The notes below the pieces were generated by a model, which did no database searches, was not told the DNA's origin, and worked only from the letters and a program-made list of their open reading frames with translations. The position numbers were made by a program, and so were the translations under genes. A stretch of 64,000 nucleotides of DNA, taken from Spirochaetia bacterium (GTDB taxonomy: Bacteria > Spirochaetota > Spirochaetia > DSM-2461). The DNA is taken from contig OY764216.1 of assembly GCA_963668315.1 (NCBI GenBank), positions 3,296,001 through 3,360,000 on the forward strand, read 5' to 3'. Positions 9,959 through 54,030 of this stretch are shown here, piece by piece. Every line of letters starts with the position of its first letter. Within the stretch, counting starts at the first letter, position 1.

Positions 9959-11496
9959 ATGAGTCAGCCATTTAAGCATAGTGCGGATAGTCTGCTTAGT
10001 TTTTTTTCACAACCTGGTCGCGGCTTCTACGTCCCTTATTATCAAAGAAATTATTCCTGGGATGAGGATAATGCAAGTAAACTTATATCAGACATTATTG
10101 GAGGGGTTAAGAGAGCTCTGAATAAACCCAACAATAGTATTTTTCTTGGTACAGTTATTCTGCATGATGAAAACAATGTGGAGGTGGGAGTGCATACTGA
10201 CACACCTAATCTCTTAACAAAAGTTTCGAATGTTGTTGATGGTCAACAACGGATTTCCTCTTTAGGAATGCTCGCTTGTACTCTTAGTTATATAATTCAG
10301 GATACGGTTCAAGAATTGAATCAATATATATCTTCTGCATCAGAAATTGCTACTTTAGTGCAGGAACTTCAAAATCAAAAGCTAGATCTGTTTGATTTTT
10401 TCTGTGTCGAGATAAAAAAAGGTGGAGCTCAACCAAATCTCAAACCACTAATTATCAGAGCTGGTGATGTGACATCAAATCCTGTATCTGATCAATGGAC
10501 ATTAGCAGGTAGTGGGAATCATTTTTATCGATCAAATACAGCTAGCTTTTTTTCTGAATTTATCAGTGGGAATCCTTTTCTTAGTATAAATAAAGATTCT
10601 AGAGTTGAGTGCGTAGTAAATACTTATATTGATCAAATTAAAAACGAACTTGGATCGGTTGATTCGGTTTTCGCTCGAAGTTTATTAAGTGCTAATAGTA
10701 CTCAAGGTGGGAGTCTCAATAACTTTATGGATTATCCGCCTAATCTTAGTAATATAAATAATCTGCCAAATAATGAGCAAAAAGTATTTTACAGTGGAAT
10801 GATGCTTCTAGCTATTTGTCATTTCTTAAAAAGTGCTTGTCATTTTGTAGTTATTGAATGTCAGGATGAGGGTATAGCATTTGATATGTTTCAATCTTTA
10901 AATGCAACAGGAACCCCTTTGACCGCATTTGAAGTATTCAGGCCAGTTATAGTAAAGAAATATGGAACAGGTTATGCTAGTACTATCAAGGACGAAGTTG
11001 ATCGAATAGAGAGCGTATTTGAAAAAGAAAGTACAGCTAGTGGTAAAGAGGAATTAACTGATAAAGTGATTGCTTCAGCCGCTCTTGCATATGATGGTTC
11101 AATCATAAGTAATAGATTCAGCGAAGAACGTGATTGGCTTATTGATACATTTCAGCCGCTAAGTGGGCAAAATGCTAAAGATTTTGTATGTTGTATTGCT
11201 AGTCAAGCTGAATATCGAGATAATATTATTCGTCCCAGAAAATCCCCAAAAAACTCTCAAAACATCAAACTTGTTAATCACTTGTTAAGTCTCGGTTTGA
11301 ATCCTCAGCAGGCTGATATGTCTGCATTCTGTATTTTTTATCTTCGAGATGCTGGACATAAATTTGCTCATAGCGTTATCAGTGTTTTTTATGCTAAACT
11401 TCTTTCATCTCAAGGGAACACTACTAAGGTAGCCTCTGCAGCTAATGAGTTTTTATCGATCTGTAAAGCAACAGCAGCCTTTTTTACCCTTTGGAT
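9959..11496 (+). pseudogene. sspE: SspE (DUF262 + HNH/DUF1524) 5' part, interrupted
   Basis: VPYYQRNYSW, VVDGQQR, FQSLNATG; frame joins 20522 as ...FTLW-MGGLQ after removing the insert and one GAT copy (778 aa). Confidence 0.85.
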
Positions 11497-11943
11497 TATG
11501 CTGAGCCCACAGGGTAAACCAGTACTTTAAATATTTAAGTTGGAATTCCCGATTCATGATAATATGAAAAGGGAGAAAATCAATGAAGAGAAAATTCGAT
11601 GAAGAGTTCAAAGCGAAAGTAGCACTGGAAGCGTTAAAGGAAGAAAAAACTCTTCAGGAACTGGCTGAGGAATATGAAGTACATCCGAACCAGATCAGTA
11701 TGTGGAAAAAACAGCTTATGGAAAATGCCAGTTCCCTCTTTGTCCGAAAGAATAAAAAAGACAAAGAACTGGAAGAAATGAAGAAAAAAGAGCAGGAACT
11801 TTTCAAGCAGCTGGGTGAAGCTAATTATGTGAACGAATTTCTAAAAAAAAAGTACAAACAACTATACGGGAAGGATTACAAATGATAGAGCCGGATCATA
11901 GGAAATTGTCTGTCCGGAAGCAATGTAAAATTCTCAATGTCAG
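11497..11943 (+). mobile_element. IS3-family element A, 5' 447 bp only (orfA 11583..11885)
   Basis: Matches 19241..19687; truncated at the IS256 junction. Confidence 0.9.
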
Positions 11944-13291
11944 GATAGTGTCCAGCCATGTTCGCAACTTTCCTTTCAAGAAGCCATCAAAATTCCCCAT
12001 TAGGCAGCCTGACCTAATTTAATTCTTTGTTCATCAATCGATTTCTCACTGATATACCGTTTTCCCGAAGCCCAGTCTTCTGAGTATTCAATCAGGTAAC
12101 AACAGACTAGTCTAAGGTAGGAGTCAATACTGGGAAAGATTCCCACAACACGAGATCGTCTACGGATTTCCCGATTCAATCGTTCCAGTTGATTGGTAGA
12201 AGCAGTTTTCCGGCTGTCTATTTCTGAGAATTCATAATACTGAAGAGAGTCTTCTAATCCGTCTTCAAGACAAGTCATGGACTTCGGAAATTGTTCTTCA
12301 AATTCCTCTATAATTCGGTATGCATATTCACGGGCCGATTGGGAGTTCGGTTGATTCCAAATCTGCTTAATTCTGCCGGCAACAGCTTCTTTATCCCTGG
12401 CAGGAAGATGGGACAGGATGTTCCTCATAAAATGGATTTTACAGCGTTGCCAGGAGCAACCGATGAGTTCCTTTCTTATGGCGGCTTGAAGTCCCAGATG
12501 GGCATCAGAGACACAGAGCCAGGCATTTTTAAATCCTCTTGCTTTAAGAGACCTGAACAGTTCGGTATAAGTGCTTTCTGATTCTTCCTGCATTGGTTCA
12601 ACAGCAAGGATTTCTTTGAATCCTTGTGAATTAACACCAGATACAACCATCACAGCCATATTTCTCACTCTTCCGTTATACCGGATCTTTTCATAGAGGG
12701 CATCAACCCAGATGACAGGATATTCTGAATCAAGAGATCGATAGCGGAATTCATCTACCTGTTCATCAAGTCCCTTATTGATTTCAGAGACCTGGCTGGC
12801 TGAAATATTTTCAATGCCCAGACTCATAGCCAATTTCTCAATCTTTCTGGTTGAAACACCGTTGATAAATGCTTCCTGGACAACCTGAATCAGAGCTTGC
12901 TCGGATCTCTTCTTTTCTGTTACAAAGAAGGGAATATATCCGCCTTTTCTGAGCTTGGGGACAAGGAGATACAGTGTTCCAAGACGAGTATCAAATCGGC
13001 GTGGTCGATATCCAGAAAAATGGGTGGATCTTCCCGTAGAATGAGACCCCTTTTGAGCTCCTACTTTATTCGCCGCTTCTATTTCCATAAGCTTTTCCAG
13101 TAGCCATTTCAATAAGCTGAAAATGGGATCCGGTTCCGAAATGAATTGGAGTAGCATTTTTTCCAGATTACCATTATCATTTTCCTTAGCCATCGTTTTC
13201 TTCCTCCATGGTTTTAGTTGTGCATTACCATTCTGGAGAATTCGATGGCTTCTTTCAATAATTAAAATTGCGAACTTGATTGTACGCTATC
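11944..13291 (-). mobile_element. IS256-family element A copy 1 (transposase 12000..13193)
   Basis: 1348 bp, GATAG...CTATC ends, VDALYEK / SDAHLGL / WQRCKIHF motifs; own flanks differ (AATGTCAG / ACTCCAGA). Confidence 0.95.
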
Positions 13292-14056
13292 ACTCCAGAT
13301 CAAATAGTTCAGTTATATAATGATGATAAAGATCATTTCTTACATATTTTAGATAACTTATTTGTCCCTATTTTAGAAGAACTTGAGTATGAAGTCATAA
13401 AACCAATCGCCGAAGGTTCAGAAATAATTCATACTAGAATTATCAATAATTTGATTGAATCAGATTTAGTTTTTTGTGATATGTCTATTTTAAACCCTAA
13501 TGTTTTTTATGAATTAGGGATAAGAACGGCAATTAATAAAAAGGTATGCATTGTAAAGGATGATAAAACCATCAAAATCCCATTTGATACAAGTTTGATA
13601 AATATTTTTACCTATGATTCAATGTTGTCCCACTGGAAAATGGACGAAATCAAGAAGACTTTAAAAGATCATATAATTGCAACAGAAAAGCATACATCAA
13701 ATGCGTTATGGGATATTTTTGGTTCAAAGACACAGAAATTATTAAATTCTGCAGTAGATAATATAAAAAATAAGAATGAAACAGATCCGAATGATCAAAT
13801 AGATCAAGTTAGAGATGGAAAAGAAAATATAGAAGTTGAAATTAAGAAAGAAAAAACAGAAAAAAGAGCTACAGTTTTCCGGGCAAAAGCTCATAAATGT
13901 ACGAGCTGTGGATATAGCTTCTTACTTGATGATAATGACTTTATAATGGCCTCAGCACTTCGAGTTTCAATTTCTGGATTATATAGTCCTATGACTGATA
14001 TTCCTGAATCCAATGTTGTTCGTTGTCCTAAATGTGACAATATTGATGTACTATAA
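13292..14056 (+). pseudogene. 3' part of a cassette gene (nucleoside 2-deoxyribosyltransferase-like fold + C-terminal Zn ribbon); 5' end at 53984..54030
   Basis: SDLVFCDMSILNPNVFYELGIR, IPFD, CTSC...CPKC; joins MKEKTCFIIMPIT-TPDQ in frame. Confidence 0.8.
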
Positions 14057-14058
14057 CC

Positions 14059-14156
14059 GTATAACAATCGCTTGAAGCAGTCAGCCCTATCGTCATGCTT
14101 TTTGCGAGGCAAAAATCACGCCGATGTACGGTCTGCAGCTTAAGCGGGCGTTATGT
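14059..14156 (+). other. attC site
   Basis: GTATAAC ... GTTATGT cores with an imperfect internal palindrome. Confidence 0.85.
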
Positions 14157-14215
14157 TTACAAGAGAAAAATTTAAGAATATAATATCGGATAGGATGAAA
14201 TAAGGAGTATCCGAT

Positions 14216-15160
14216 ATGAATGAAAAAATACTAAAGAGCATCATCGGAAAGAAAAAAGAACTCGATAAATATCGTCCCTTAAGTCCATCAATCTCAAGAA
14301 AATTAAAAGAAGAACTAGAACTTGAATGGACATATAATTCCAATGCAATAGAAGGAAATACTTTAACTCTCCAGGAAACACAAATTGTACTGAATTACGG
14401 AATGACAATAGGTGGAAAATCCGTAAATGAGCATCTCGAAGCTATTAATCATAAAAAAGGAATAGAATTAATAGAAGAGATAATACAAAAGAAAAAAGAT
14501 CTAGATGAATCATTAATCAAAGAACTACATTATTTAATATTAAAAGGAATTGATGATAGAGAAGCAGGACATTATCGAACGCAAAATGTAAGGATTATGG
14601 GAGCTTATTTATTTCCGCCTCAGGCCATAAAAGTCGAAAAGAAAATGGAAGAATTGATGTCCTGGTATTATGAAAATAAATTTAAGATGGAAATTCCAAT
14701 TTTAGCTGCCGAAATGCATTATCGATTTGTCTGTATTCATCCTTTTATTGATGGAAATGGAAGAGTTTCCCGATTAATCATGAATATGATATTAATGTCA
14801 AACGGATTTCCGCCTGCCATAATATTAAAAGTGGATAGAAGAAAATATTATCGAGTATTGAATGATGCTAATCAAGGAAAAGAAGATTCATTCATTAATT
14901 TCATAGGAAAATCTATAGAAAGAAGTCTTATCATATATTTGAATAGTGTAAAAGAAAATAAATCAGAAAGAGAAGGATTTATCAATTTACGAGAAGCAGC
15001 CAAATATTGTGATTACTCCCAGGAATATTTATCTCTATTAGCAAGAAAAGGAAGAATCTCGGCCATAAAACTTAATAAAGAATGGGTAACAACTCGAGAA
15101 GCCATTGAAGAATATCAAGAGCAGATGAATAAGAAAAACAATAAGAAAATCCAAAAATAA
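14216..15160 (+). CDS. Fic family protein with C-terminal HTH (cassette)
   Basis: HPFIDGNGRVSR, SNAIEGN; C-terminal LREAAKYCDYSQEYLSLLAR. Confidence 0.9.
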   Translation: MNEKILKSIIGKKKELDKYRPLSPSISRKLKEELELEWTYNSNAIEGNTLTLQETQIVLNYGMTIGGKSVNEHLEAINHKKGIELIEEIIQKKKDLDESLIKELHYLILKGIDDREAGHYRTQNVRIMGAYLFPPQAIKVEKKMEELMSWYYENKFKMEIPILAAEMHYRFVCIHPFIDGNGRVSRLIMNMILMSNGFPPAIILKVDRRKYYRVLNDANQGKEDSFINFIGKSIERSLIIYLNSVKENKSEREGFINLREAAKYCDYSQEYLSLLARKGRISAIKLNKEWVTTREAIEEYQEQMNKKNNKKIQK

Positions 15161-15362
15161 AGAAAAAGAGTAAGAATAGAATAACTTCCGAAATGTCCAT
15201 TGAATATACTATAATGAGCACAGAAATTAATGGAAAATACTTGTTGAAAATATATTAAATAATCTATAAATACTTGTTTGATAATAGTATATAATGTATT
15301 CTCTTGTAGATGTTTAATGAATATATATATCATATATAAGAAATATTTAGGATGTAAACTTA

Positions 15363-16148
15363 TTGAAAATTACTAGATATATAACATACTTTATTATATT
15401 TGTTGTTATAACGATTTGTTTTTACTTATATGACTATCATTATTATAATTCATTAGTACAAACACTGAGTAATCACGTGGAATTTTGGGGTGTAATTACA
15501 AACGTTAATAGTGAAGAATCAGATGGAAGGAACAATAAGGTATTAACAACTATATCTTATGAATATAATGGAAAAAATGATTACATCAGTTTTTCATTTA
15601 ATTCTTTTCTAAGTAGATATCATTTATTATATGTTCCTGATTATAAAACTGGTTATAAATTAGTCATATATGAAAATAATGAAATCAATTTTTCAATTCC
15701 AGAACCATTTATTAAGACAAAAAAAATTGAAATTTTACGGAATTATATTAGTATTGTTTTCTTTCTAATGATAATTTCAATGATCATCACAAGAAGGATA
15801 AACTTAGAAATTGATAAGAAAATTCTTGGAGATAGAATTGAGATATATTATCAAACAAAAGCATTTATAATTAAAAAAATAAAAACTATAGACTTAATTT
15901 ACCTTAAGAATGAATTGTATCAAATAGTTGATTTCTCAAAACTCGAATCAAATAATTTTCTCTGTTATGGAATAAGAAATCTTTCTTTGAAGGTTGAACT
16001 ATATAAAGAAAAAGAAAAATACTTGATTTCAAAATCAGATGCAGATGAAGTTATTCAAGAGTACATTATTATTGATTCAAAAGAAAAATACATTGAGATA
16101 TTAATTAATGTTTTTAAAGGGGACTATGTCTTTAATCGTAAAACATAA
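15363..16148 (+). CDS. Hypothetical membrane protein (second ORF of the cassette)
   Basis: Two hydrophobic segments; stop codon lies inside the attC R'' box. Confidence 0.6.
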   Translation: MKITRYITYFIIFVVITICFYLYDYHYYNSLVQTLSNHVEFWGVITNVNSEESDGRNNKVLTTISYEYNGKNDYISFSFNSFLSRYHLLYVPDYKTGYKLVIYENNEINFSIPEPFIKTKKIEILRNYISIVFFLMIISMIITRRINLEIDKKILGDRIEIYYQTKAFIIKKIKTIDLIYLKNELYQIVDFSKLESNNFLCYGIRNLSLKVELYKEKEKYLISKSDADEVIQEYIIIDSKEKYIEILINVFKGDYVFNRKT

Positions 16149-16244
16149 CAAACATTTGAACGTTGACAGCCCTACTGATCACGGTTTCTGCTTACGCACA
16201 AACCGCGCCAGCTTAACGGTCTGCAAGTTAAATGGGCTTTCTAA
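16143..16244 (+). other. attC site with mutated R' (TTTCTAA)
   Basis: ACATAAC complements GTTATGT at 14150; the expected GTT reads TTT. Confidence 0.8.
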
Positions 16245-16280
16245 AGAATAAAGGTAAGAGTTAAAATAAAAGGGGGAAAT

Positions 16281-17969
16281 ATGAGTATAATTCATATAAA
16301 TCAAATAAAATCATATCTGGAAAATAATGTTTTTGATAAAATTGATATCACGGATTTAGGTGAAAATCTTTCCCCAGAAGATAAGAAAAAACAATTACTA
16401 ACAAGAAGTTTGTCAGCGTATTGTATACAGTGCCTTGTTGATGAACCAATTGAAAAAATAACAAAATATGTAATTGATGGTTCAATGGATAATGGGATTG
16501 ATTGTATTTTTTATAGTGATACATCAAATATACTATATATTTCTCAAGCCAAATGGCACGATAGTGGTAATAAGACAATAGATAAAGGCGAAATACAAAA
16601 ATTTATTAAAGGAATTAAAGATCTTCTTAATAGTCGGTACGATAAATTTAATGAGAAATTACAGTCTTTTAAGAAAACAATTGATGCGGCACTTCAACAT
16701 CCTAATACAAATATAAAGCTACTAATTTCATATTCTACTACAAATGATTTACCTGAAGAATTGCATGAGGATATTCAAGACTTTTTAATTGAAATGAATG
16801 ATACATCTGAAGTAATAAGCTATGAGGTTTTAAACCAATCTTTTCTACACCGTTCAATTGTTAGGGGAACAGATACATCTCCAATCAATGAAGAACTAAT
16901 ACTAGAAAATTGGGGATATATCTCAGAACCATATGAAGCTTATTATGGAATTATAAATGCTTCTATTCTATCTCGGATATATGAAAAATATGAAAGAAAA
17001 TTATTTGTACCAAATATTAGATCGTTCCTAACTGATAGCGAAATTAATACAAGTATTGAAGAGACTATAAATTCAAATCCAGAATCATTCTTCTATTTTA
17101 ATAATGGCATCACTTTCACGACTGAAAGTATTACAAAGAAATTAACAAGTGGGACAAATCGAAATACAGGTATTTTTGATTGTATAAATCTTTCAATAAT
17201 TAATGGTGCACAAACTGTTGGTTCAATTGCTAGAGCAGGTAAAAAAGATCCTAGAAATCTTGATAATACAAATGTTTTAGTTAAAATCATATCACTAAAG
17301 GATGCTAAGGATGATTTTCAGTCTAAAGTTACAAAAGCTGCAAATACTCAAAATACAGTAGGAAGTAGAGATTTTATTACTCAAGATCCAGAGCAAGAGA
17401 GATTAAAATTAGAATTACAGATTGAAGGAATTTATTATTCATATAAGAGAGGGGACCTTTTTTCAAGCGAAAGCATTGGGTTTGATTTTGAAGAAGCAAT
17501 TTCAACCCTTTCTAATTATAAAGGTGATATAAAATTAGTAACCCAGGCAAAACGAGAATTAGGAGTTCTGTGGAAAGATGTCACGAAGGCTCCTTATAAA
17601 ATTTTATTCAACCCAACGCTATCAAGTATTGAACTCTGGAATATTGTCCAGATACAAAGAAAGATTGATAAATTATTAGAAGAAAAAAGAAATGATGCTG
17701 TTGAAAAGAATGCTTTATTTCTCATCCATGGAAATAAATTTCTGAGTTTCTTAACTATTGAAAATATAATTTCTGAGAATAATATTAAAAAGGAATTTAT
17801 AGATATTGAAACATTAAATGAAAAAATAATGATAAGTCTTGATGATTCGATTTCCCGATTATATATTTCCGTGGAAAAGATTTATCCAGATGATTATTTA
17901 GGAAATTTATTCAAAACAGTTTCAAAGTGTCAAACTTTATATGAAGATATAAATGAGAAAAATCTTTAG
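16281..17969 (+). CDS. AIPR family protein (cassette)
   Basis: DNGIDC, QAKW, NIRSFL, FFYFNNGIT, IINGAQT, NTQN. Confidence 0.88.
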   Translation: MSIIHINQIKSYLENNVFDKIDITDLGENLSPEDKKKQLLTRSLSAYCIQCLVDEPIEKITKYVIDGSMDNGIDCIFYSDTSNILYISQAKWHDSGNKTIDKGEIQKFIKGIKDLLNSRYDKFNEKLQSFKKTIDAALQHPNTNIKLLISYSTTNDLPEELHEDIQDFLIEMNDTSEVISYEVLNQSFLHRSIVRGTDTSPINEELILENWGYISEPYEAYYGIINASILSRIYEKYERKLFVPNIRSFLTDSEINTSIEETINSNPESFFYFNNGITFTTESITKKLTSGTNRNTGIFDCINLSIINGAQTVGSIARAGKKDPRNLDNTNVLVKIISLKDAKDDFQSKVTKAANTQNTVGSRDFITQDPEQERLKLELQIEGIYYSYKRGDLFSSESIGFDFEEAISTLSNYKGDIKLVTQAKRELGVLWKDVTKAPYKILFNPTLSSIELWNIVQIQRKIDKLLEEKRNDAVEKNALFLIHGNKFLSFLTIENIISENNIKKEFIDIETLNEKIMISLDDSISRLYISVEKIYPDDYLGNLFKTVSKCQTLYEDINEKNL

Positions 17970-18074
17970 AACAATAAAATGCACCTGACAGCCCTACTGT
18001 CACAAATACTGCTTAACGCTTCGCGGCAGTATTTGCGCCAGCTTCACGGTCTGCAGGTGATTTTGGCGTTAGCC
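17966..18074 (+). other. attC site
   Basis: TTAGAAC ... GTTAGCC with palindromic arms. Confidence 0.85.
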
Positions 18075-18125
18075 ATATTCAAGAAAAGGGTTGATGATAC
18101 TATCAAATGATACTATCATGATAAA

Positions 18126-19088
18126 ATGAAACCACCATATGATATTACCCCGACAATACTCGAACTCTATGGAAAAATAACTGAAGCATTAGGAATATGC
18201 CAAAGTTTGATGCTTGTAAAACCAGAAGCAAAATTAAGACGACAAAATAGAATCAAGACCATTCAATCATCCCTTTCCATCGAAGGAAATACTCTCAATA
18301 TAGAAAATGTAACGGCAATTTTAAATAATAAAAGAATAATTGGACCAGAAAAAGATATTCTTGAAGTACATAATGCGATTTCCGCCTATGAATTATTAAC
18401 CAATTTGAATAAAAATAAAGAGAATGATTTTTTAAAGGCTCATAAGTTATTGATGGATAAACTAGTAAAAAATCCAGGACAATATAGAAGAGTACAAGTT
18501 GGAATTATGAGAGGCGAAAATGTCACTCACGTCGCGCCTGGACCAGATATGGTTCCTAGTTTAATGAAAGATCTATTTCAATATTTAAAGAATGATAAGG
18601 ATCTTGAGATCATTAAAAGCTGTGTATTTCATTATGAAATGGAATTTATCCATCCATTTGAAGATGGTAACGGAAGAATGGGAAGATTTTGGCAAACAAG
18701 AATATTAATGAGTGTAAATCCAATCTTTGAATTTGTTCCGATTGAAGAATTAATAAAGAATAATCAAAAAGAATATTATGAAGCATTGTCGCAAAGCGAC
18801 AATACAGGAAAATCGACGATATTCATAGAATTTATGTTAAATGTCATAAATCAATCATTACGTGATACAATAAAAGAATCAAAACCACAAAATCCAAAAT
18901 TTAAAAAAAGATCAGCAATTGCTTTATCAAAATTAGATGATTGGTTTGATAGAAAAGAATATATGGAAATGTGTCATGGGATTTCCACGGCAACAGCAAG
19001 TAGAGATTTAAAACAATTATTAGAAGAAAAAAGAATTGAAGAAAGAGGGAAGGGGAGGATGACCCAGTACCGTAGAAGAAATGGCTAA
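18126..19088 (+). CDS. Fic family protein with C-terminal HTH (cassette)
   Basis: HPFEDGNGRMGR, SLSIEGN, ISTATASRDLKQL. Confidence 0.9.
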   Translation: MKPPYDITPTILELYGKITEALGICQSLMLVKPEAKLRRQNRIKTIQSSLSIEGNTLNIENVTAILNNKRIIGPEKDILEVHNAISAYELLTNLNKNKENDFLKAHKLLMDKLVKNPGQYRRVQVGIMRGENVTHVAPGPDMVPSLMKDLFQYLKNDKDLEIIKSCVFHYEMEFIHPFEDGNGRMGRFWQTRILMSVNPIFEFVPIEELIKNNQKEYYEALSQSDNTGKSTIFIEFMLNVINQSLRDTIKESKPQNPKFKKRSAIALSKLDDWFDRKEYMEMCHGISTATASRDLKQLLEEKRIEERGKGRMTQYRRRNG

Positions 19089-19191
19089 CAAGCATTTGAA
19101 ACTGACAAATCTTTTTGTCATGCAAATTGCGTTTCGCAATTTACACGCCAAACCCTGCGGGACAGATTTGCAGCTTAAATGGGCGTTATCT
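19083..19191 (+). other. attC site
   Basis: GGCTAAC ... GTTATCT; closely similar to attC at 47450 and 48684. Confidence 0.88.
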
Positions 19192-19240
19192 ATACAAAAG
19201 GTAACAACCATAGACCAACCCTACAATTAGAGAAGGACAT

Positions 19241-43312: not shown

Positions 43313-43408
43313 TGATAACAAAGTTTTGCAGCAGTCTTGGCTATGTCACGATTTTTGCAAAGCAAAAATAGCGCCAAATACGCCAAGCAGCTGAAAACGG
43401 CGTTATAT
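43313..43408 (+). other. attC site
   Basis: TGATAAC ... GTTATAT. Confidence 0.85.
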
Positions 43409-43456
43409 AGTTAACGGAATGAAAAAGATAATTTTGATCGAGTAAGGAGATGAATA

Positions 43457-46419: not shown

Positions 46420-46421
46420 CT

Positions 46422-46529
46422 ATATAACAATGAATTGAAGTTGAATTTCCTATGTCATAAATCCTGCTTTTCTGCTGCGCAGGCAGGATTTTCGCCATTT
46501 ACGGAAATCAACTTAATTCGGCGTTCTAA
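46422..46529 (+). other. attC site
   Basis: ATATAAC ... GTTCTAA; TAACTATATAAC complements the cassette start GTTATATAGTTA. Confidence 0.88.
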
Positions 46530-46612
46530 AGACAAAAAATCATTATCGAAGAGATAAAAGAAGTAAGACAGATAGTAGAAATCATTTTGACCTGATCGAA
46601 TGATGATGGAGT

Positions 46613-47395
46613 TTGGAAATGAGTGTCATCGTTGAGAAAGAATATATAAAAGAAATTCCAATTATAAAAGTATTTAATTCACACTCTATTAAACCATTAC
46701 CAGTAATTCTTATGTTACATGGAGCAACCGGGAGAAAAGAGGATAATCTAGATAGAGCAAAGTGGTTTGCGAATGAAGGTTTTTTTATTGTATTGTTCGA
46801 TGCTTATGAGCATGGAGAATTAAAGTCAAATAACAGAAACGAGATTGAAGATATTGAAAAAATATTTAAATTATATTTAGAAACATCTAAATATATAACA
46901 ACTATAATAAATTATTTTATGACACAAAATAGTATTGGTGATTTTAGAAAAGTAGGATTAATTGGTTTTTCAATGGGAGCACATACTGTTTACTATCATA
47001 TTTTAAAAGAACGACATAGTAATATAAAAATTGCTATAGCAGTGATAGGTTCACCGGTATGGCGAAGTTTTGTAAAACGTTTTGTTTCTATGATTATAAA
47101 TCTAAAAACATCTTATAATGATATTATTATCAAAGAAAAAGAAGAAAAAATTTCAGAAATCCAACCAATAAAGTTTATCGATAATATTCAGGAATTACCA
47201 TTAATAATGCTCAATGGTGAGTTAGATGATAAAATACCAATACAAGAAATTGAAGATTCATATAATAAATTGAAACTGAGATATAGAGAAAAAAGTAAAA
47301 TTGAGTATATAAAATATAAAAACACAGGTCATAAAGTTACAGATAATATGATAGAAACTGCATTGAATAGGTTTAAAAAGTATTTATTTATATAG
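46613..47395 (+). CDS. Alpha/beta hydrolase (esterase) cassette
   Basis: LHG, GFSMG nucleophile elbow, GELDDKIP, TGHKV. Confidence 0.85.
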   Translation: MEMSVIVEKEYIKEIPIIKVFNSHSIKPLPVILMLHGATGRKEDNLDRAKWFANEGFFIVLFDAYEHGELKSNNRNEIEDIEKIFKLYLETSKYITTIINYFMTQNSIGDFRKVGLIGFSMGAHTVYYHILKERHSNIKIAIAVIGSPVWRSFVKRFVSMIINLKTSYNDIIIKEKEEKISEIQPIKFIDNIQELPLIMLNGELDDKIPIQEIEDSYNKLKLRYREKSKIEYIKYKNTGHKVTDNMIETALNRFKKYLFI

Positions 47396-47449
47396 TGATA
47401 TTGAATTAAAGATTTACCATAGCTGTGGAGCAATGGCATGATAAATGCT

Positions 47450-47558
47450 TTAGAACAAGCTTTTGAAGTTGTCAAATCTTTTTGTCATGTAAATTGCTTT
47501 TCGCAATTTACACGCCAAACCCTACGGGTCAGCTTTGCAACTTAAAAGGGCGTTAGCC
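47450..47558 (+). other. attC site
   Basis: TTAGAAC ... GTTAGCC. Confidence 0.88.
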
Positions 47559-47575
47559 AGACAGTAAAAGGAAGG

Positions 47576-48673
47576 GTGAAATTAATGATGAATGAGGATA
47601 TAATTCTAATTCCCAATTTTCCATTCTCGAAAAAATATATTGATCAAATTATTTCAATCCTAAATTATCATGATCCATTTGTAATATTAGCAATTGATGA
47701 CGAAGCAAAAAAATACTCTATTTTTCATAACGCCTACACAAAAGATGTATTAGAATATAATTTTATTGCTCATATCGATCGAAATATAATTACCTATGCT
47801 TTTCAATTCATAAAATCTGAAAACAGAACGATCAAACAACAACAACTTGCTCTATCTTGTTTTCTATACTTAAATTTGCTTGAAGCAAAATATGAATTAT
47901 CTCAACCTGTATTAGAATTATTACATAGTACAGAGAATGCTAATAGAACGAAAAATGAAATTATATCATGGAATCAATTTATCGATTTTCTGCACTCGGA
48001 TAATATTAAGTATATTCTTGATTTCATTTTTGAAGGTATAAATAAATTACCTAAATTAAGTGAAATAACAGATAAAGAAAAGCTACAAATTAAGCAATTA
48101 GATATTTCTGATATTGAACCGCCCATAAGTTGGTATTCTGCCTATATTCATTTATTGAAACTATCAATTATTCAAAAAGAGAATAAAGGATCAATCGAAA
48201 GTATAAGTGAATATTTTAATTGGATAATTACAGAATATAAATCTGATGCTTCTTGTATATATTTTTCGTTTATATTCTTCTCGAATAAACATGAATATAA
48301 AAAAATATATAATGAGAAAACTAGAATTATGAATTTGGCTTGGGATCTTTCACACGTTACAAATTGGTTTCGAGATTCTATTAAACATATAAATGATGAA
48401 AAGATTATTGATATTCTTGTTACTCATGATGGAATGTTGAAGGATATTGCAAATCTCTTATCAGAAGAGTGTAAAATATCAGCAAATGCAGGACGAAAGA
48501 AATGTAAATTTTTGGAATTATACTATTCAAGAAATGATGTAGATAGAATAAATGAATTGTATAATTCCTATGTAAATAATTTAAAATCTGACAATCGAAC
48601 CCCAAAAACCATTAATGATATTGAACAAAAGAAAGGTATAATTGCAGATTTAGAATTAGAGTTATTTGGATAA
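47576..48673 (+). CDS. Hypothetical protein (cassette), possible PIN-like fold
   Basis: 365-aa ORF filling the cassette; IDRNII, NLAWDL, LVTHDGML. Confidence 0.65.
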   Translation: MKLMMNEDIILIPNFPFSKKYIDQIISILNYHDPFVILAIDDEAKKYSIFHNAYTKDVLEYNFIAHIDRNIITYAFQFIKSENRTIKQQQLALSCFLYLNLLEAKYELSQPVLELLHSTENANRTKNEIISWNQFIDFLHSDNIKYILDFIFEGINKLPKLSEITDKEKLQIKQLDISDIEPPISWYSAYIHLLKLSIIQKENKGSIESISEYFNWIITEYKSDASCIYFSFIFFSNKHEYKKIYNEKTRIMNLAWDLSHVTNWFRDSIKHINDEKIIDILVTHDGMLKDIANLLSEECKISANAGRKKCKFLELYYSRNDVDRINELYNSYVNNLKSDNRTPKTINDIEQKKGIIADLELELFG

Positions 48674-48683
48674 TTTATTGGCT

Positions 48684-48792
48684 GGCTAACAAGCTTTTGA
48701 AGTTGTCAAATCTTGTTGTCATGTAAATTGCTATTCGCAATTTACACGCCAACCCCTTCGGGACAGCTTTGCAACTTAAAAGGGCGTTATAC
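48684..48792 (+). other. attC site
   Basis: GGCTAAC ... GTTATAC. Confidence 0.88.
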
Positions 48793-48911
48793 GAATTCTT
48801 GAATAATATACGAACATATTCTAATGAAAAAAAGATAAAAAAAATTCCAAGAAAGAAAAATGAAAAAATAAGATAAAAACAAAGAATAGAAGAAAAAAAA
48901 GGCAAGAATCA

Positions 48912-48940
48912 TTGACTTACACAATCCAATGTGTGAAAAT
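48912..48940 (+). promoter_or_regulatory. Putative TA promoter/operator
   Basis: TTGACT-17 nt-GAAAAT with an ACACA...TGTGT inverted repeat in the spacer. Confidence 0.5.
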
Positions 48941-48964
48941 GTAAATATAAAGGAGCAAATATCT

Positions 48965-49165
48965 ATGGCAACGAATTTAGCAATTGAAGATGAGCTTCTA
49001 ATCGAAGCTCAAAAAATAGCAGGATTTAGAACAAAAAAAGAAACTGTAAATTCTGCCCTAAAAGAATTTATTGAAAGAAGAAAACAGATTGAAATAGTCG
49101 ATCTATTTGGATCAATAGACTATGAAGAAGATTATGATTATAAATCTGAACGAAATAGAAAATGA
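48965..49165 (+). CDS. vapB: VapB-type antitoxin
   Basis: MATNLAIEDELL...TKKETVNSALKEFI; AGGAG RBS; overlaps the toxin. Confidence 0.85.
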   Translation: MATNLAIEDELLIEAQKIAGFRTKKETVNSALKEFIERRKQIEIVDLFGSIDYEEDYDYKSERNRK

Positions 49166-49587
49166 ATATATTAGTTGATACTTCAGTTTGGTCCCTTGCA
49201 TTTAGGAAAAAGACTTTAACAAATGAAGAAAATAAAATAGTCAATGAATTAAAAGAATTAATATTTGAGAAAAGAGTTCAAATCATAGGCCCAATTCGTC
49301 AAGAATTATTGTCCGGGATTAAAAATCCTATGACTTTTGAAATATTGAAAAATAAAATGCATGCTTTTGAAGATGAAATCCTAGAATCATATGATTATGA
49401 AAAAGCAGCAGAAATCAATAATTTATGTAGAAGTAAAGGAATTCAAGGTTCTCATATTGATTATTTGATAGCATCAGCAGCGATAAATAGAAATATTGCA
49501 ATATTTACAACAGACAAAGATTTCAATAATTATTCTTCCGTAATAGAAATGAAACTTCATTCAATAAGAAAAGAAATAGAAGAATAA
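49162..49587 (+). CDS. vapC: VapC PIN-domain toxin
   Basis: ILVDTSVW, QELLSG, IDYLIA, TTDKDF. Confidence 0.9.
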   Translation: MNILVDTSVWSLAFRKKTLTNEENKIVNELKELIFEKRVQIIGPIRQELLSGIKNPMTFEILKNKMHAFEDEILESYDYEKAAEINNLCRSKGIQGSHIDYLIASAAINRNIAIFTTDKDFNNYSSVIEMKLHSIRKEIEE

Positions 49588-49619
49588 AGAAAGACCATTT
49601 AAAGAAAAAAAAGAAAATC

Positions 49620-49717
49620 GTATAACAATGAATTGGAGCCGAATTGCCTATGTCACATTTCTTGCTATTCGCAAGAAATCCGCCATGGACGGCAATCAGC
49701 TCAATTCGGCGTTCTAT
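49620..49717 (+). other. attC site
   Basis: GTATAAC ... GTTCTAT. Confidence 0.85.
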
Positions 49718-50150
49718 AGACTAGGGTATGTTCATTTATCATCCTTGTAAAATTGGTCTTTGACATGCATTCAGTTTTCTGCCTCCGGGTGGGAGAATAA
49801 TTTTGGGCTTTAAACCCCAGTGGGAGAATCGCGTTGGAGAACTCAGGGCCCCCCCGGAGGGAGATCCTCTCTGGTTTTTTTTCATAGTATTCTGTGCTGT
49901 CTACGCGACCCTGGGGAAAGAATAGAAATATGGAATTTAACCCCAGGGATGAAGAATGTGGAACGAACCTCCGGTGGAAGATTATTTTTTGGTTTTTTTT
50001 CTTTGTATTTCCTTATACTGGGGGTATGATTAATTGCTTCAGCTGCAGCAAAGGGATGGGCAATAATGGTGTTATATTGAAAACAGTATAATTCTATTAA
50101 AGTTGTAGATTTGCTGTATTCAATACTACATTCGTCTGCTATCCATTTTA

Positions 50151-50675
50151 ATGAAACCATTTTCGGAGATTAATATGAAACGTGTAATTATTATCTTATT
50201 TGTAAGTTTAATCTTATCAAATTTATTCTCAGAAGAAATTGTCACGTTAAATGATGGAAGAAAAATCATTGTCTATGATGATCATACCTGGATTGAATAC
50301 TCAGATAATAATCTATCAATTGAAGATATAGTAAATAAAAATAAACAATATTTACGTTCAGATATTTCTGCTTCACAAGATGAGGTTTCAGTTGCTTGTG
50401 AGATGTATGAGCAAGGATGGACATATACAATGCCAAGACCGAAAAGTGCCAAAGCAGCTTGGGGTGTTTCAGATGGACGAACAACTTGGTATAACGGTTG
50501 GTGGTATAATTCAAAAACAAATTTATACTCGGATTCAACACCAGAAAAATCATCAAGTGGACTTTTCTTAGGAGATGGGCAAAATAGCTCACATACATGG
50601 CGTAATGGGGGGGCACCTAGACGACCAGATATTTTTATGTTCTTGCTCTCTAGCTCAGGTGGTCCACGCTTTTAG
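50151..50675 (+). CDS. Hypothetical secreted protein (cassette)
   Basis: Signal peptide MKRVIIILFVSLILSNLFS; VTLNDGRKIIVYDDHTW. Confidence 0.7.
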   Translation: MKPFSEINMKRVIIILFVSLILSNLFSEEIVTLNDGRKIIVYDDHTWIEYSDNNLSIEDIVNKNKQYLRSDISASQDEVSVACEMYEQGWTYTMPRPKSAKAAWGVSDGRTTWYNGWWYNSKTNLYSDSTPEKSSSGLFLGDGQNSSHTWRNGGAPRRPDIFMFLLSSSGGPRF

Positions 50676-50703
50676 ATAATTATCATAATGTTTGAGGTAA
50701 GCA

Positions 50704-51507
50704 ATGATAACGCGAAAAAGAATCTTTAAGATAATTGAAAAAGCAGAGAATAATGATATCGCAAGCAAGATATTTGATATTTCCATTATCATCTTAATTG
50801 TACTAAATGTTTTTGCAATAATTTTACAATCATTCAAAGATATCGCAGATTCCTATTATGGCTTGTTTAGATTCTTTGAAATATTCTCGGTTATAATTTT
50901 TTCTATAGAAATTTTATTAAGAATAATTACTTGTGACTTAAAGTTCCCGGAAAAAAGATGGTTTCTTTCATTCATTAAATATTCTTTCTCATTCATGGCT
51001 ATAATTGATCTGTTGGCTATTTTACCGTTTTATCTTCCTATCTTAATTCCGATTGATCTAAGGTTTTTAAGAGTATTACGATTAACGAGAATCCTTCGAA
51101 TATTAAAAGTCAATCGATATAGTAAATCCTTAGATTTGATTGGAAAAGTATTATATAAAAAGAAATATGAATTATTAGTCACAATTTTCATAACATCAAT
51201 TCTGTTATTGTTAGCTTCATCGATGATGTATTATTTAGAAAATGATGCCCAGCCTGATTCATTTCCCAATATCATCGCATCATTTTGGTGGGCAATTGCT
51301 ACCCTTACGACTGTAGGATATGGTGATGTTTATCCCATTACTATTCTTGGTAAAATAACTAGCGGTATTATAGCATTGTTAGGAATTGGACTAGTTGCTC
51401 TGCCTACAGGTATAATAAGTTCTGGTTTCATGGAGATAATTTCAGAAGAAAAAGAAAAGGATAATGATTATAAGTATTGTCCTGATTGTGGACGAAGATT
51501 GGATTAA
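50704..51507 (+). CDS. Voltage-gated K+ channel / ion transporter
   Basis: S4 RFLRVLRLTRILRILK, TTVGYGD filter, C-terminal CPDC. Confidence 0.9.
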   Translation: MITRKRIFKIIEKAENNDIASKIFDISIIILIVLNVFAIILQSFKDIADSYYGLFRFFEIFSVIIFSIEILLRIITCDLKFPEKRWFLSFIKYSFSFMAIIDLLAILPFYLPILIPIDLRFLRVLRLTRILRILKVNRYSKSLDLIGKVLYKKKYELLVTIFITSILLLLASSMMYYLENDAQPDSFPNIIASFWWAIATLTTVGYGDVYPITILGKITSGIIALLGIGLVALPTGIISSGFMEIISEEKEKDNDYKYCPDCGRRLD

Positions 51508-51512
51508 TAGCT

Positions 51513-51618
51513 ATAGAACAAAGTTTTGCTACTGTCAATTTTTCTGGCACGTATTTTGTTTTCACAAAATAAGCGCCAGCCCTTCGGGACAAAATTGCAG
51601 CAGAAAACGGCGTTATAT
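51513..51618 (+). other. attC site
   Basis: ATAGAAC ... GTTATAT. Confidence 0.85.
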
Positions 51619-51635
51619 GTATTAAGGAGTTTTAA

Positions 51636-52370
51636 GTGAACCCAATTGCAAGAAATGCGATGAATAAAACACTGTATAAATACTTAAGTGCAGAAAATGC
51701 TCTGAAAACATTAGAAACCCTTAAAATAAAAATAACAAAACCTAAAGAATTAAATGATCCATATGAAATAGTACCATCATTATCAAATGTCTCAGAAAAA
51801 TTAAAAAAAATACTTATAGACCTTACAAGTGAGATGAAAAAAAGGACAGCAATTTACTGCCTGTCTGGAAATGAATTAAATAACTTAATGTGGGCACATT
51901 ATGCGAACAATTATTCAGGTATTTGTATTGGATTTAATTCAAAATTGCTAGAAAAAATTAATTTATATGAAGTGATATATGATGTTAGTCGGCCGACAAT
52001 CGATGAAAAAATCATTCAAAATAGAATAAGAGATGAAGCTATGAAGTACATTTTGAAATTAATGCTTACAAAAAGTTATAAATGGAAAGATGAAAAAGAA
52101 TTTCGTTTTCTTTTTGATTTAGATGAAGAAGAAATCACAAGAACTATTATTTTAGAAAAGATTAATATTATATGTATTAATGAGATTATAATAGGACCTC
52201 GAATTAGTATAGACGATCTTAAAGAATTAAAATCCATATTAGAAAAACCAATTTTTTCCCATATAGAAGTTTATGGGCTAGAATTCTTTGATAATACTTC
52301 ATATGAATTAAAAAAATATCAAATACTCCTAAATGATTTAATTAATTATAAAAATAAACTTGATATATAA
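51636..52370 (+). CDS. DUF2971 family protein (cassette)
   Basis: LYKY, LNDPYE, LMWAHYA...GICIGF, KSYKWKDEKEFR. Confidence 0.8.
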   Translation: MNPIARNAMNKTLYKYLSAENALKTLETLKIKITKPKELNDPYEIVPSLSNVSEKLKKILIDLTSEMKKRTAIYCLSGNELNNLMWAHYANNYSGICIGFNSKLLEKINLYEVIYDVSRPTIDEKIIQNRIRDEAMKYILKLMLTKSYKWKDEKEFRFLFDLDEEEITRTIILEKINIICINEIIIGPRISIDDLKELKSILEKPIFSHIEVYGLEFFDNTSYELKKYQILLNDLINYKNKLDI

Positions 52371-53238
52371 TAAAGAGGTTTTAGATATTATGAATAATCA
52401 AAGAAATACGTTGAAAAATCTTTTTTCTAGTCTAATTGGAGTAATACGCTCTTTATATAAATTGTATCCTTTTTTTGTTTTAACAATTTTAATTATTGGT
52501 TTTTATTTCACTTTAGGAATTTCAAGGACAAATGTATATACAGCATTTTCTATTGTTATCATTCTTTTTGTATCAATATTAATATATGCAAGTTCAAAAA
52601 GGTTCGGAGAAGCTTCATTATCATTAGCAGCTGGTATTTTATCTGTCTTTTCAATTAATTGGAATCCTAAATTATTTATTGCTTTTTCAATCACTTGGCT
52701 TTGCTTTGCATGCTTTTCTATCATGATTGCATCAATTAGGATTGCATCCGAGGTTGAAAATATTATGAGAATGACAGCAATAAAAATTGATTCTAATAAT
52801 TACAAAAAGGTTGAAAAAAAATTAGAACAAATAAGGAAAAATAAAGCAAATTTGCTTGTTAGCCCAATCGAAGCATGCCGAGCTCAATTAATTCTTGCTT
52901 ATAATAATATTCCAATTTCTTCTTTTTCTACAGCAATGAATAGAATTGAACAGCTAAAGGTAATTACAGGATTAGAATATAAAATATGCACAAACTTTGT
53001 AATTGATCTTTTGAATTTATCAAAAGAAATATTGATTTTTAATCAATGTTTTGACAAATTCTTTATTCTCATAAGAGATTCACCATATGTTCCAAATGAA
53101 ATGTTTGTATTTATAAAAAGAACAAAATATTATGTTTTAAGCGGAGATTACACGTTGGATGAATATTTAAAAAAACTAAAAGATAAATTGATAAAAGGTT
53201 TTAATCTTGATGAACTAGAGAGAACATTAATGGATTAA
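52360..53238 (+). CDS. Hypothetical membrane protein (about 4 TM + soluble domain)
   Basis: Hydrophobic N-terminal half; same cassette as DUF2971. Confidence 0.65.
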   Translation: MIYNKEVLDIMNNQRNTLKNLFSSLIGVIRSLYKLYPFFVLTILIIGFYFTLGISRTNVYTAFSIVIILFVSILIYASSKRFGEASLSLAAGILSVFSINWNPKLFIAFSITWLCFACFSIMIASIRIASEVENIMRMTAIKIDSNNYKKVEKKLEQIRKNKANLLVSPIEACRAQLILAYNNIPISSFSTAMNRIEQLKVITGLEYKICTNFVIDLLNLSKEILIFNQCFDKFFILIRDSPYVPNEMFVFIKRTKYYVLSGDYTLDEYLKKLKDKLIKGFNLDELERTLMD

Positions 53239-53245
53239 TGAATAC

Positions 53246-53343
53246 ATATAACAAAGTCTTGAAGCGGAATTAGCCACTTGTCACAGAAACTGCTTGCGCA
53301 TTTTCTGCGCCAATTGTCTAATCAGCTTAAGACGACGTTATAC
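53246..53343 (+). other. attC site
   Basis: ATATAAC ... GTTATAC; AATACATATAAC complements GTTATATGTATT at 51612. Confidence 0.88.
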
Positions 53344-53358
53344 GGATAAGGGGTAAAT

Positions 53359-53982
53359 GTGGAATTAGAAATGGAAACAACAAATAGATTTATCGACTAT
53401 TTAATAATGCATGGATATCCCGAATCAAGTATTGCGGTTGAATATGAAATAGGAAAAAACACTCGTGTAGATATAGCCATATTAGATACAAAGACTAATC
53501 TCCCAATTCAACTTTTTGAGCTAAAGTCGAGAAAAAACCAACAAATGATTGAAATGGGAAAGAGACAAATTTCTAAATATAAACAGTTATTAGGAAATAA
53601 AAATATTCCTACATATCTAGTCTTTCCTGAATCTATAAAGCCATATTTTTCAATTCTAGATATTAGTGATACAGAAAATGAAAATACAATGTCTTCATTA
53701 AATTATAAAGGTCAAAAGAATTCCCGAATTGCTGAAGAAGTAAGAGAGATAAAGCATAAAAAAGAGCGGACTATAGATAATTTTAAAATTATATGTTGGA
53801 TTCTAGCAGTAATTGTTTTATTTATAGCGTTATTAAATAAATATTGTTCTTTTAATATTTCTGCAATTGATTTAACATTGCTTGGTTTAATTATTGGTTT
53901 AGTATTGATTCCCTTTGCAAGTAAACTAAAAATACTGGGAGTTGAATTTGAAAGACTAACTGAAACAGAAATTAAAGGTTAG
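53359..53982 (+). CDS. PD-(D/E)XK (HsdR-N-like) + 2 TM protein, paralog of 43457..44089
   Basis: GYPESSIAVEY, RVDI, FELK, KILGVEFER. Confidence 0.7.
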   Translation: MELEMETTNRFIDYLIMHGYPESSIAVEYEIGKNTRVDIAILDTKTNLPIQLFELKSRKNQQMIEMGKRQISKYKQLLGNKNIPTYLVFPESIKPYFSILDISDTENENTMSSLNYKGQKNSRIAEEVREIKHKKERTIDNFKIICWILAVIVLFIALLNKYCSFNISAIDLTLLGLIIGLVLIPFASKLKILGVEFERLTETEIKG

Positions 53983-53983
53983 A

Positions 53984-54030
53984 ATGAAAGAAAAAACTTG
54001 TTTTATAATAATGCCTATTACAACTCCAGA
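53984..54030 (+). pseudogene. 5' end of the gene whose remainder is at 13300..14056
   Basis: MKEKTCFIIMPITTP; ends in ACTCCAGA. Confidence 0.8.

Follow-up and report, generated by a model that had tools for sequence, protein, structure and literature searches.

Integron gene cassettes in a broken sspE gene of a Spirochaetia bacterium and their possible transfer by recombination between insertion sequence copies

Results

The sspE locus and its insert

The window, i.e. the whole stretch of 64,000 nucleotides analysed here, contains an SspABCD-SspE phosphorothioation system, for which PADLOC found sspA, sspB, sspC, sspD and sspE co-located. In the assembly, sspE, a phage-defence gene, is interrupted by a block of integron gene cassettes of about 6 kb (13292-19240), which lies between insertion sequences (IS) and about 40 kb away from its parent array. 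The features of this locus are:

3552-9746, + strand: sspA, sspB, sspC and sspD, phosphorothioation modification genes upstream of sspE (PADLOC SspA/B/C/D matches, E <=1e-95)
9959-11496, + strand: sspE 5′ part, 512 codons (PDLC02790 positions 2-512 and frame arithmetic), last bases GAT (11494-11496)
11497-11943, + strand: segment i, the first 447 bp of an IS3-family element, with orfA 11583-11885; identical to 19241-19687
11944-13291, - strand: IS256-family copy 1, transposase 12000-13193, flanks AATGTCAG (left) and ACTCCAGA (right), without a duplication of its own
13292-14155, + strand: split cassette, 3′ half, with the remainder of a 267-aa gene (13300-14056) and attC from 14057
14151-16243, + strand: intact cassette with a Fic gene (14216-15160), a 261-aa gene (15363-16148) and attC
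16236-18071, + strand: cassette with an AIPR-domain gene (16281-17969) and attC, start approximate
18069-19190, + strand: intact cassette with a second Fic gene (18126-19088) and attC
19185-19240, + strand: 56-bp stub, cassette start and left end of an IS481-like element
19241-20518, + strand: full IS3-family element (segments i and j), orfA 19327-19629, orfB 19626-20459, flanks CAT and GAT
20519-21320, + strand: sspE 3′ part, 266 codons, with the second GAT (PDLC02790 positions 511-776)

By frame arithmetic the two sspE parts are in the same frame (512 + 266 aa), and they are separated by an insert of 9,022 bp that carries GAT at both outer ends (11494-11496 and 20519-20521). The insert is built as the initial annotation had described it, namely the first 447 bp of IS3, IS256, the cassettes and a full IS3, with GAT at the outer ends only and CAT to the left of the inner IS3.

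The IS256 assignment rests on the DDE transposase (NF033543, 324 bits at a cut-off of 150; PF00872 match), on imperfect terminal inverted repeats and on exact 8-9-bp duplications in 7 of the 14 copies of the genome. Four of the 14 have no duplication on either side, and one of these four is located within another IS, where about 200 bp have been lost locally. For the IS3-family element, orfB matched NF033516 (274.9 bits, cut-off 160) and orfA HTH_Tnp_1, the two frames being shifted and overlapping at ATGA; target duplications (TGA, AAAA, ATTC, GAT) at four of six left ends fit the length of 3-4 bp. The ends of this family are 5′-TG...CA-3′; here, as set by the duplications, they read TATG...CATA instead.

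Integron cassettes and the donor array

The sequence from which the block appears to derive is found at the other end of the window:

43311-53342, + strand: donor cassette array with 7 attC sites, intI absent nearby
53337-54030, + strand: split cassette, 5′ half, with start GTTATACGG, a 207-aa gene (53359-53982), the first 47 bases of the 267-aa gene and end ACTCCAGA
54031-55378, - strand: IS256-family copy 4, identical to copy 1, flanks ACTCCAGA (left) and CATAAAGA (right)
55379-60772, - strand: second IS3-family element, distinct from the first (about 75% identity); IS256 copy 4 truncates it at the position equivalent to nt 896, and a 3,182-bp element (55706-58887) and a further IS256-family element (58991-60290) interrupt it
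60773-61943, + strand: remainder of an IS481-like element, whose left end is the stub at 19185-19240

Using our own profile, we found four attC sites in the sspE block and seven in the donor array, and seven distinct sites among both passed the folding scan; this is in keeping with the complementary R''/R' cores, folded bottom strand, single site per cassette and uniform orientation of integron arrays. The only intI of the genome is located at G000:C1:3134145-3135380, where the single match out of 18 to pass the TIGR02249 cut-off (G000:C1:3134160-3135089) lies 174 kb off the block; its IntI relatives are distant (30-51%). The donor array, about 204 kb from intI, is itself an orphan, and with intI absent nearby and present elsewhere in the genome the arrangement is that of a CALIN. 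Movement of the block by the integrase was considered and rejected because neither block end coincides with an attC or attI crossover point (G|TT): the left end (13292) falls within a gene and the right end (19240) 56 bp into a cassette, and both abut IS ends.

Three observations connect the block with the array that ends at 54030, and on each of them our reanalysis agrees with the initial annotation. The right flank of IS256 copy 1 (13292-13299) equals the left flank of copy 4 (54023-54030), both reading ACTCCAGA. This is the only left-flank/right-flank match between different copies among the 14, the chance expectation for such matches being about 0.002 over 30 pairings. Furthermore, 53984-54030 and 13300-14056 together form a single open frame of 267 aa. 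The 5′ piece, which reads MKEKTCFIIMPITTP, matches the N-termini of the full-length homologues P0002, P0004, P0006 and P0007, and these N-termini are missing from the 3′ piece, to which P0002 is 52% identical. Among 55 matches of the 251-aa piece there was no identical full-length relative. Finally, the cassette start GTTATACGG (53337) is the reverse complement of CCGTATAAC in the attC at 14057. As a control, we took the eight contiguous cassettes whose start is readable; each of them agrees with its own next attC at 9 of 9 positions. Compared with 11 attC sites, the 53337 start reaches 9/9 only with the 14057 attC (next best 8/9), a match that is not unique in principle, since one control start also fits a second attC; read by eye, the same start/attC pair is used by two other cassettes of the genome. 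Taken together, it is supported that block 13292-19240 belongs to the array ending at 54030 and originates from the array at 43-54 kb.

The right end of the block is less clearly connected. The IS481-like stub (19185-19240) and the sequence at 60773-61943 are two ends of one element type, 105 bp short of an intact copy, and suggest that the block was once placed directly upstream of the right flank of the donor. They do not have a target duplication in common (AAA versus GGA), so this link is suggestive only. The first 99 bases of the remainder equal an intact IS481-like copy, and the rest differs by 9%. In addition, the stub shares 96% identity with the cassette that comes first after the attI-like site of the main integron.

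An IS3 variant at G000:C1:3399047-3400324 was examined as the missing donor end and discarded: it is another allele on the opposite strand with unmatched flanks, and no attC follows it.

The outer ends of the insert are the left and right ends of IS3 with a 3-bp duplication, the length found for the element elsewhere, as expected if an IS3-bounded composite transposon, i.e. the entire 9,022-bp unit, had jumped into intact sspE and created the GAT duplication. The left IS3 copy of this unit is a 447-bp piece, and the unit occurs only once in the genome. However, such a transposition would require a donor with the left IS3 piece preceding IS256, yet at 54031 the cassette 5′ half still abuts an IS256 with the matching 8-mer. 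In addition, the unit would first have to be built by extra events, and we regard this route as highly improbable.

Two equivalent block orders

With i for the first 447 bp of IS3, S for IS256 and B for the cassettes, the order in the window is A-i-S-B-i-j-C-S-D. A block swap across the interleaved repeats gives A-i-j-C-S-B-i-S-D; in this order sspE carries a complete IS3 flanked by GAT, one IS256 regains a duplication of its own and the array becomes contiguous. Both orders have the same k-mers at every k tested up to 450. The initial annotation had named a repeat-induced misassembly as a caveat; this holds and is sharper than it was put, as sequences of 450 bases or less cannot separate the two orders. 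Interleaved IS repeats thus produce gene orders that look alike to short reads, and translocations of the kind seen at sspE require spanning reads. In either order sspE is broken at codon 512/513 according to the PADLOC profile and the order comparison, so its state is unaffected by the cassette move.

An assembly phasing error has to be weighed, in which the cell has A-i-j-C-S-B-i-S-D and the assembler swapped blocks over the repeats of 447 bp and 1,348 bp or took a minority haplotype. Besides being identical in k-mers, the simpler order accounts for all flanks without recombination, and contigs from public runs break at both repeats. Against this stands the assembly itself, a one-contig genome with three rRNA operons and six identical 3,182-bp repeats, five of which keep their own 5-bp duplication. 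IS256 keeps its duplication in 7 of 14 copies, and no other cross-matched pair occurs among separate copies; the pair described here is the only swapped one among the 14 IS256 copies. The duplications kept at the 3,182-bp repeats indicate that the assembly phases repeats longer than those at issue, which would imply reads much longer than these. On balance, a phasing error appears rather unlikely.

Public sequencing runs covering part of 11000-20900 numbered 11, all available as contigs, and four were aligned over 9500-19270. In the two deep runs, which come from one sample that is possibly the source of the assembly and hence do not count as independent evidence, the contig on the sspE side stops at 11524, and a single contig (13263-19124) makes up the block. 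A repeat is spanned by none of the 32 contig pieces listed over 9500-19270. A run from a second sample covered 28 of 30 bins thinly, with neither junction among its listed matches. The two joints that appear among the listed results (side 23-26 letters) probably stem from other copies of IS256. The block is single-copy in the genome, and its depth in the two deep runs was 0.97x and 1.23x of the flanking contig, i.e. near single copy. The value of 1.23x was rejected as proof of a free circle, given 0.97x in the other run and a G+C content of 29% in the block against 47% in the reference contig.

Among 40 related genomes only IS and cassette matches were obtained, and none had a related locus with the arrangement proposed below as precursor. 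For the sspE 3′ part, 37 genomes of the family gave no match; of the 38 genomes covered, 15 did not reach the 90%/5% quality bar. Two scans for exact patterns in JGI metagenome contigs gave no match, and Rfam and tRNA scans of the window likewise gave none. Four of five window proteins looked up were single-member clusters, the fifth being absent from the collection. With no repeat-spanning piece among those listed and no precursor-like locus in the relatives searched, both the present order and this precursor are to be taken as provisional.

Discussion

Recombination between IS copies

What the assembly shows directly is the junctions, a duplication and a gene that are each split, and two orders that are equivalent; from these we infer a precursor, a circle and recombination. 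In the reading that we prefer, with a probability of about 0.5, the block moved into sspE via two homologous recombination events between identical IS copies, the move itself involving neither an integrase nor a transposase step. In the precursor, sspE would have been broken by a whole IS3 (GAT/GAT) and the last array cassette by IS256 (ACTCCAGA/ACTCCAGA), followed downstream by the block, IS3 nt 1-447 and a second IS256 located on a local deletion of about 1.3 kb. In a first step, the direct IS256 copies, 7,744 bp apart, would recombine to a non-replicating circle consisting of IS256, the cassettes and IS3 nt 1-447, and the donor would be left exactly in its observed state, in which the cassette 5′ half is followed by IS256 and then by the second IS3-family element. 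In a second step, the 447-bp IS3 piece of the circle would recombine with the IS3 in sspE, giving the insert exactly as seen. The mirror order, included in the above probability, would yield the same product by a 42,087-bp circle leaving via the IS3 pieces and returning via IS256.

This precursor needs just one IS256 without a duplication on either side. According to PMC11708052, insertion of an IS followed by adjacent deletion accounted for all 14 duplication-less events among 83 in the LTEE, and PMC4894685 reports that circles arise from two direct IS copies by homologous recombination and may re-enter likewise. What speaks against the recombination reading is the landing place: of roughly 19,300 bp of homologous sequence available to the circle, re-entry in sspE would have used 447 bp, about 2%, compared with 17,524 bp in other IS256 copies and 1,794 bp in other IS3 pieces, so that sspE was an unlikely target. 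As all IS copies involved are identical, the crossovers are not mappable.

The initial annotation had already proposed a circle of IS256, cassettes and the IS3 5′ part that entered an IS3 in sspE independently of integrase. The source of the block, the movement without integrase and the ability of this circle to reproduce the insert are supported by our analysis, but its formation by attack of the IS256 transposase on IS3 is not. In that route the transposase would have attacked IS3 at nt 447/448, the circle would have entered the sspE IS3, and a later adjacent deletion would have removed the rest of the IS3 at the donor. It yields the insert exactly and requires no additional IS256 insertion; for IS26, replicative adjacent deletion is a known source of such circles (PMC4894685), and one-sided, duplication-less junctions are common for this IS256. 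However, the predicted donor scar, a junction of IS256 with IS3 nt 440/448 onward, occurs nowhere in the genome, which speaks for recombination and is the reason why the attack route must assume an extra deletion. Furthermore, the circle junctions reported for the IS256 family in PMC7780238 lie 5-19 nt from the other end, compared with 6.4 kb in the attack route, and a rare off-target attack and a rare re-entry would both be required in one cell.

In general, DNA between direct 1.3-kb repeats is excised far more often than a rare off-target attack occurs. A transposase attack is unnecessary, because plain recombination of two direct IS256 copies would give the same circle, from a precursor that fits both target duplications. 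We consider the attack route unlikely, and it is equally doubtful that the transposase of an IS256-family element excised a cargo circle through attack on another IS 6.4 kb away, the captured IS3 piece serving as landing key. If true, this would amount to a translocatable unit that does not belong to the IS6 family, works in relay between two IS families and gives rise to new orphan cassette arrays without integrase, here in a defence island.

The same set of junctions would, by reasoning from the map, also result from two routes without any circle: a tandem duplication by unequal crossover between the two IS3 copies plus two IS256 adjacent deletions, or an independent insertion of IS256 at nt 447 of the IS3 in sspE, after which the block was copied in by gene conversion or a double crossover and the donor copy was lost. 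IS-bounded duplications are frequent according to PMC11708052, and the IS256 copies of this genome often lie within other IS. On the other hand, unique sequence is nowhere left duplicated, consistent with the single-copy block and its depth, and both deletions of the first route would have to end by chance within about 1-2 kb of repeat boundaries. These routes appear less probable still than a transposase attack.

Relation to known systems

The proposed recombination would work like the IS26 translocatable unit, but it is not one. That unit is described by Harmer and Hall (PMC4894685) as a non-replicating circle of one IS and adjacent DNA that is rescued by re-entry at an existing IS and originates from adjacent deletion or from homologous recombination between two direct IS copies. 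In contrast, the IS here belongs to the IS256 family and not to IS6, and re-entry would have occurred via a passenger fragment of a second family and not beside the same IS: the insert in sspE is bounded by IS3 sequence, with a single IS256 inside. A targeted conservative reaction is neither needed nor shown. The circles of IS256-family copy-out/paste-in transposition (ISCth4, PMC7780238; IS256, PMC10266640) share the transposase family and the 8-bp duplications with our case, whereas the descriptions of them in these two sources concern the IS alone with a short spacer and do not extend to kilobases of flanking DNA. Duplication-less IS copies arising from recombination between identical copies or from adjacent deletion are treated by Ngan et al. 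(PMC11708052); the cases given there are single deletions or duplications, while here a block interchange with two crossovers at two repeat families is proposed. A circle released at one IS family and re-entering via another was found in none of the titles and abstracts searched, a weak negative, as most of the subscription literature lies outside this search.

Orphan cassette arrays made by IS are already known, and recombination between IS copies is an ordinary mechanism. Cury et al. (PMC4889954) describe attC clusters away from intI, in intI-bearing genomes and beside IS; they report that 38% of CALINs have an IS next to them and propose that CALINs arise through IS rearrangements. The present case differs from those described there in two respects: donor, split cassette and both target duplications are traceable at base resolution, and the donor array is an orphan in its own right. 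Should long reads bear out the order, this case would represent the base-resolved birth of a CALIN in an integrase-bearing genome, a step that has been proposed from genome statistics and is seldom traceable. It would also mean that an IS fragment carried as cargo can set the landing site of a circle, and that cassettes of Fic and AIPR type were thereby moved into a phosphorothioation defence locus.

Split cassette array

The following segments were distinguished in the window:
up to 11496: segment A, ending within sspE (phosphorothioation defence gene)
11497-11943: segment i, nucleotides 1-447 of IS3
11944-13291: segment S, IS256 copy 1
13292-19240: segment B, the cassette block
19241-20518: complete IS3, i.e. 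segment i and segment j (IS3 nucleotides 448-1278)
20519-54030: segment C, from the sspE 3′ half to the donor cassette array
54031-55378: segment S, IS256 copy 4
from 55379: segment D

One cassette array is split in the assembly. All four observations that the initial annotation had put forward hold; the block and the array that stops at 54030 therefore formed a single array in the past. The 8-mer divided between IS256 copies 1 and 4 is the sole cross-copy flank match among 14 copies (~0.002 expected by chance), the halves of the 267-aa gene joined across 54030/13300 match full-length homologues, the cassette start at 53337 pairs with the attC at 14057 as the own attC does in 8/8 contiguous control cassettes, and sspE is broken in frame with GAT at both sides. 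The proposed independence of the integrase is also supported: no attC crossover point coincides with either block end, thus the integrase did not move the block. The block starts with the remaining 3′ half of the split cassette, followed by three cassettes (one with Fic and a 261-aa gene, one with the AIPR-domain gene, one with a second Fic), and it closes with a 56-bp stub.

Behind the block's second attC, the crossover core (16236-16243) is TTTCTAAAG, whereas GTTCTAAAG would be expected from the matching attC; the site is possibly inactive. In sspE, an in-frame ATG opens the 3′ half (20519-21320) immediately behind IS3, and the 5′ half extends 11 codons into IS3; judged from these reading frames, separate expression of both halves is conceivable. 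The donor array opens with a 5′-truncated IS481-like element (41125-42158), which is cut by IS256 copy 2 and identical to contig positions 3147880-3149190 in the main array.

Two equivalent block orders

The window order is A-i-S-B-i-j-C-S-D, with i and S as interleaved repeats. Rearranged to A-i-j-C-S-B-i-S-D, the sequence keeps its length and its k-mers at 9/9 k values tested up to 450, the first difference appearing at k=451. This simpler order places a whole IS3 in sspE between two GAT and an IS256 in the cassette between two ACTCCAGA, makes the array contiguous, and has only one IS256 without duplication, which would lie on a ~1.3-kb local deletion (831 + 105 + 382 bp). IS256 without duplication is an ordinary state in this genome: 7 of the 14 copies are flanked by an exact duplication of their own and one by a near one (by eye), four have none on either side and two form the swapped pair.

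It is unlikely that the assembler interchanged the blocks over the interleaved repeats. Contigs of public sequencing runs break at both i and S, and a Xanthomonas preprint (10.1101/2025.06.18.660453) voices this doubt too, for an integron flanked by IS. However, the assembly separates three rRNA operons and keeps the own duplications at five of six identical 3,182-bp repeats, and thus resolves repeats that exceed i and S in length. In two deep runs, contig depth relative to single copy was 4.0x and 3.8x over i, versus five assembly copies of most of i, and 12.9x and 13.4x over IS256, versus 14 assembly copies; depth cannot tell the block orders apart because copy numbers are equal in both. The locus was not found in the related genomes and JGI metagenome contigs searched. 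Altogether, we consider the block move real with a probability of about 0.8.

Remnants of an IS481-like element bear on whether B once adjoined D. At its right end, B has a stub with 96% identity to the beginning of the main integron's first cassette; this cassette contains an IS481-like element (NF033577 score 210.7 bits, slightly under the cut-off of 224). The remainder of such an element (60773-61943) follows immediately on the second IS3-family element of D, and 105 bp are absent between stub and remainder; the first 99 bases of the remainder equal the intact copy, and over its full length it differs at 106 of 1,171 positions. Against this link count the lack of a common target duplication and a third fragment at contig positions 3162221-3163847. 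By sequence comparison, the pieces lend moderate independent support to B having been beside D.

The end of the main array holds a sequence (contig positions 3160514-3160920) with 95% identity to the beginning of the block's first Fic cassette (14158-14564). An IS256-family element lacking a duplication truncates this sequence, and a 3′ fragment of the same IS481-like element comes next; the sequence may represent a relative of the block that has undergone deletion.

Mechanism of the probable block move

Most likely, the block moved by ordinary recombination. Starting from the simpler order as precursor, recombination of two direct IS256 copies would free an S-B-i circle (7,744 bp) and leave C-S-D at the donor, as observed. 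The circle would then recombine via i into the IS3 in sspE, yielding the observed A-i-S-B-i-j-C. After the precursor, two crossovers would suffice with no third step, and in mirror order they would give the same result.

The initial annotation had proposed the same circle, which can be retained, but as product of an attack of IS256 on a neighbouring IS3, which we regard as quite improbable. This attack predicts IS256 followed by IS3 nucleotide 440 or 448 at the donor, and neither junction is present in the genome, where CAT follows no right end of IS3 either; the route therefore needs a later deletion. Also, distant attack is not the reaction documented for the IS256 family in the available part of PMC7780238. 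Counted from a state with all insertions present, the number of events differs little (three for recombination versus three or four). Recombination is favoured because its precursor steps can build up over time and fit a pattern that recurs in this genome, and because a distant attack and the re-entry would have to take place in the same cell. How often the two reactions occur relative to each other is judged here from general knowledge. In the LTEE, a pattern matching these precursor steps is likewise common (PMC11708052).

The IS3 in sspE accounts for ~2% of the homology available to the circle, which weakens both circle routes. As a rival, duplication-deletion or gene conversion would produce the same junctions, but the deletions must end near repeat edges because no unique sequence remains in two copies.

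As far as the accessible texts describe them, IS26 translocatable units work similarly, but two of their defining features are lacking here, as the IS family differs and there is no re-entry beside the same IS (PMC4894685); IS256 circles are IS-only (PMC10266640; PMC7780238); deletion by recombining direct IS copies is textbook knowledge (PMC9330008); and splitting of arrays into CALINs (orphan attC clusters without integrase) by IS was proposed from genome statistics (PMC4889954). Within a partial coverage of titles and abstracts, no circle exiting at one IS family and re-entering via another was found.

Genome setting and mobile elements

The genome comprises 5.62 Mb on one contig, with the window at positions 3296001-3360000. 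Three FlaA matches above the Pfam cut-off point to a likely spirochaete, and among full-length 16S matches in the plasmid collection the top one was Treponema, at 81%. The genome is IS-rich: besides the 14 copies of the IS256 at issue, it contains related IS256-family elements, counted by their 16 left ends, a 3,182-bp element in six identical copies, and several copies of IS3 and of IS481-like elements. The single integron integrase (3134145-3135380) has its own array; further attC clusters are dispersed across the chromosome, two of them in the window (four attC at 14.1-19.2 kb and seven at 43.3-53.3 kb).

In the main integron (contig positions 3134145-3164530), intact intI (411 aa) is divergent from an array of ~13 attC strewn with IS3, IS256 and IS481-like copies; two attC are interrupted, at 3143264 by IS3 and at 3150794 by IS256. 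The scattered attC at 3437807, 4547467 and 5021658 differ internally and agree in their flanking sequence to either side: the R'' side ends in CTATACAAC and the start reads GTTGTATAGAAATC. Next to an attC lies a tandem array (5015392-5021600; period ~2.3 kb), in which three 1,580-bp IS110-family elements alternate with a 173-aa gene present twice; two further copies are at 5028931 and 3441054.

The 3,182-bp element (in the window at 27466-30647, 35725-38906 and 55706-58887) encodes an integrase-core/Mu C-terminal transposase, an AAA ATPase and two small genes; its copies come with 5-bp duplications, and the element scored above the cut-off of no NCBIfam IS family. One copy struck a diverged relative at 24.9-27.5 kb. 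At contig positions 4290940-4300536, two IS256-family elements are nested inside IS3 and themselves broken by the IS256 at issue and the 3,182-bp element. Behind the IS481-like remainder, open frames of 2,703 aa and then 1,560 aa extend from 62232 to 70343 (genome-extended window coordinates).
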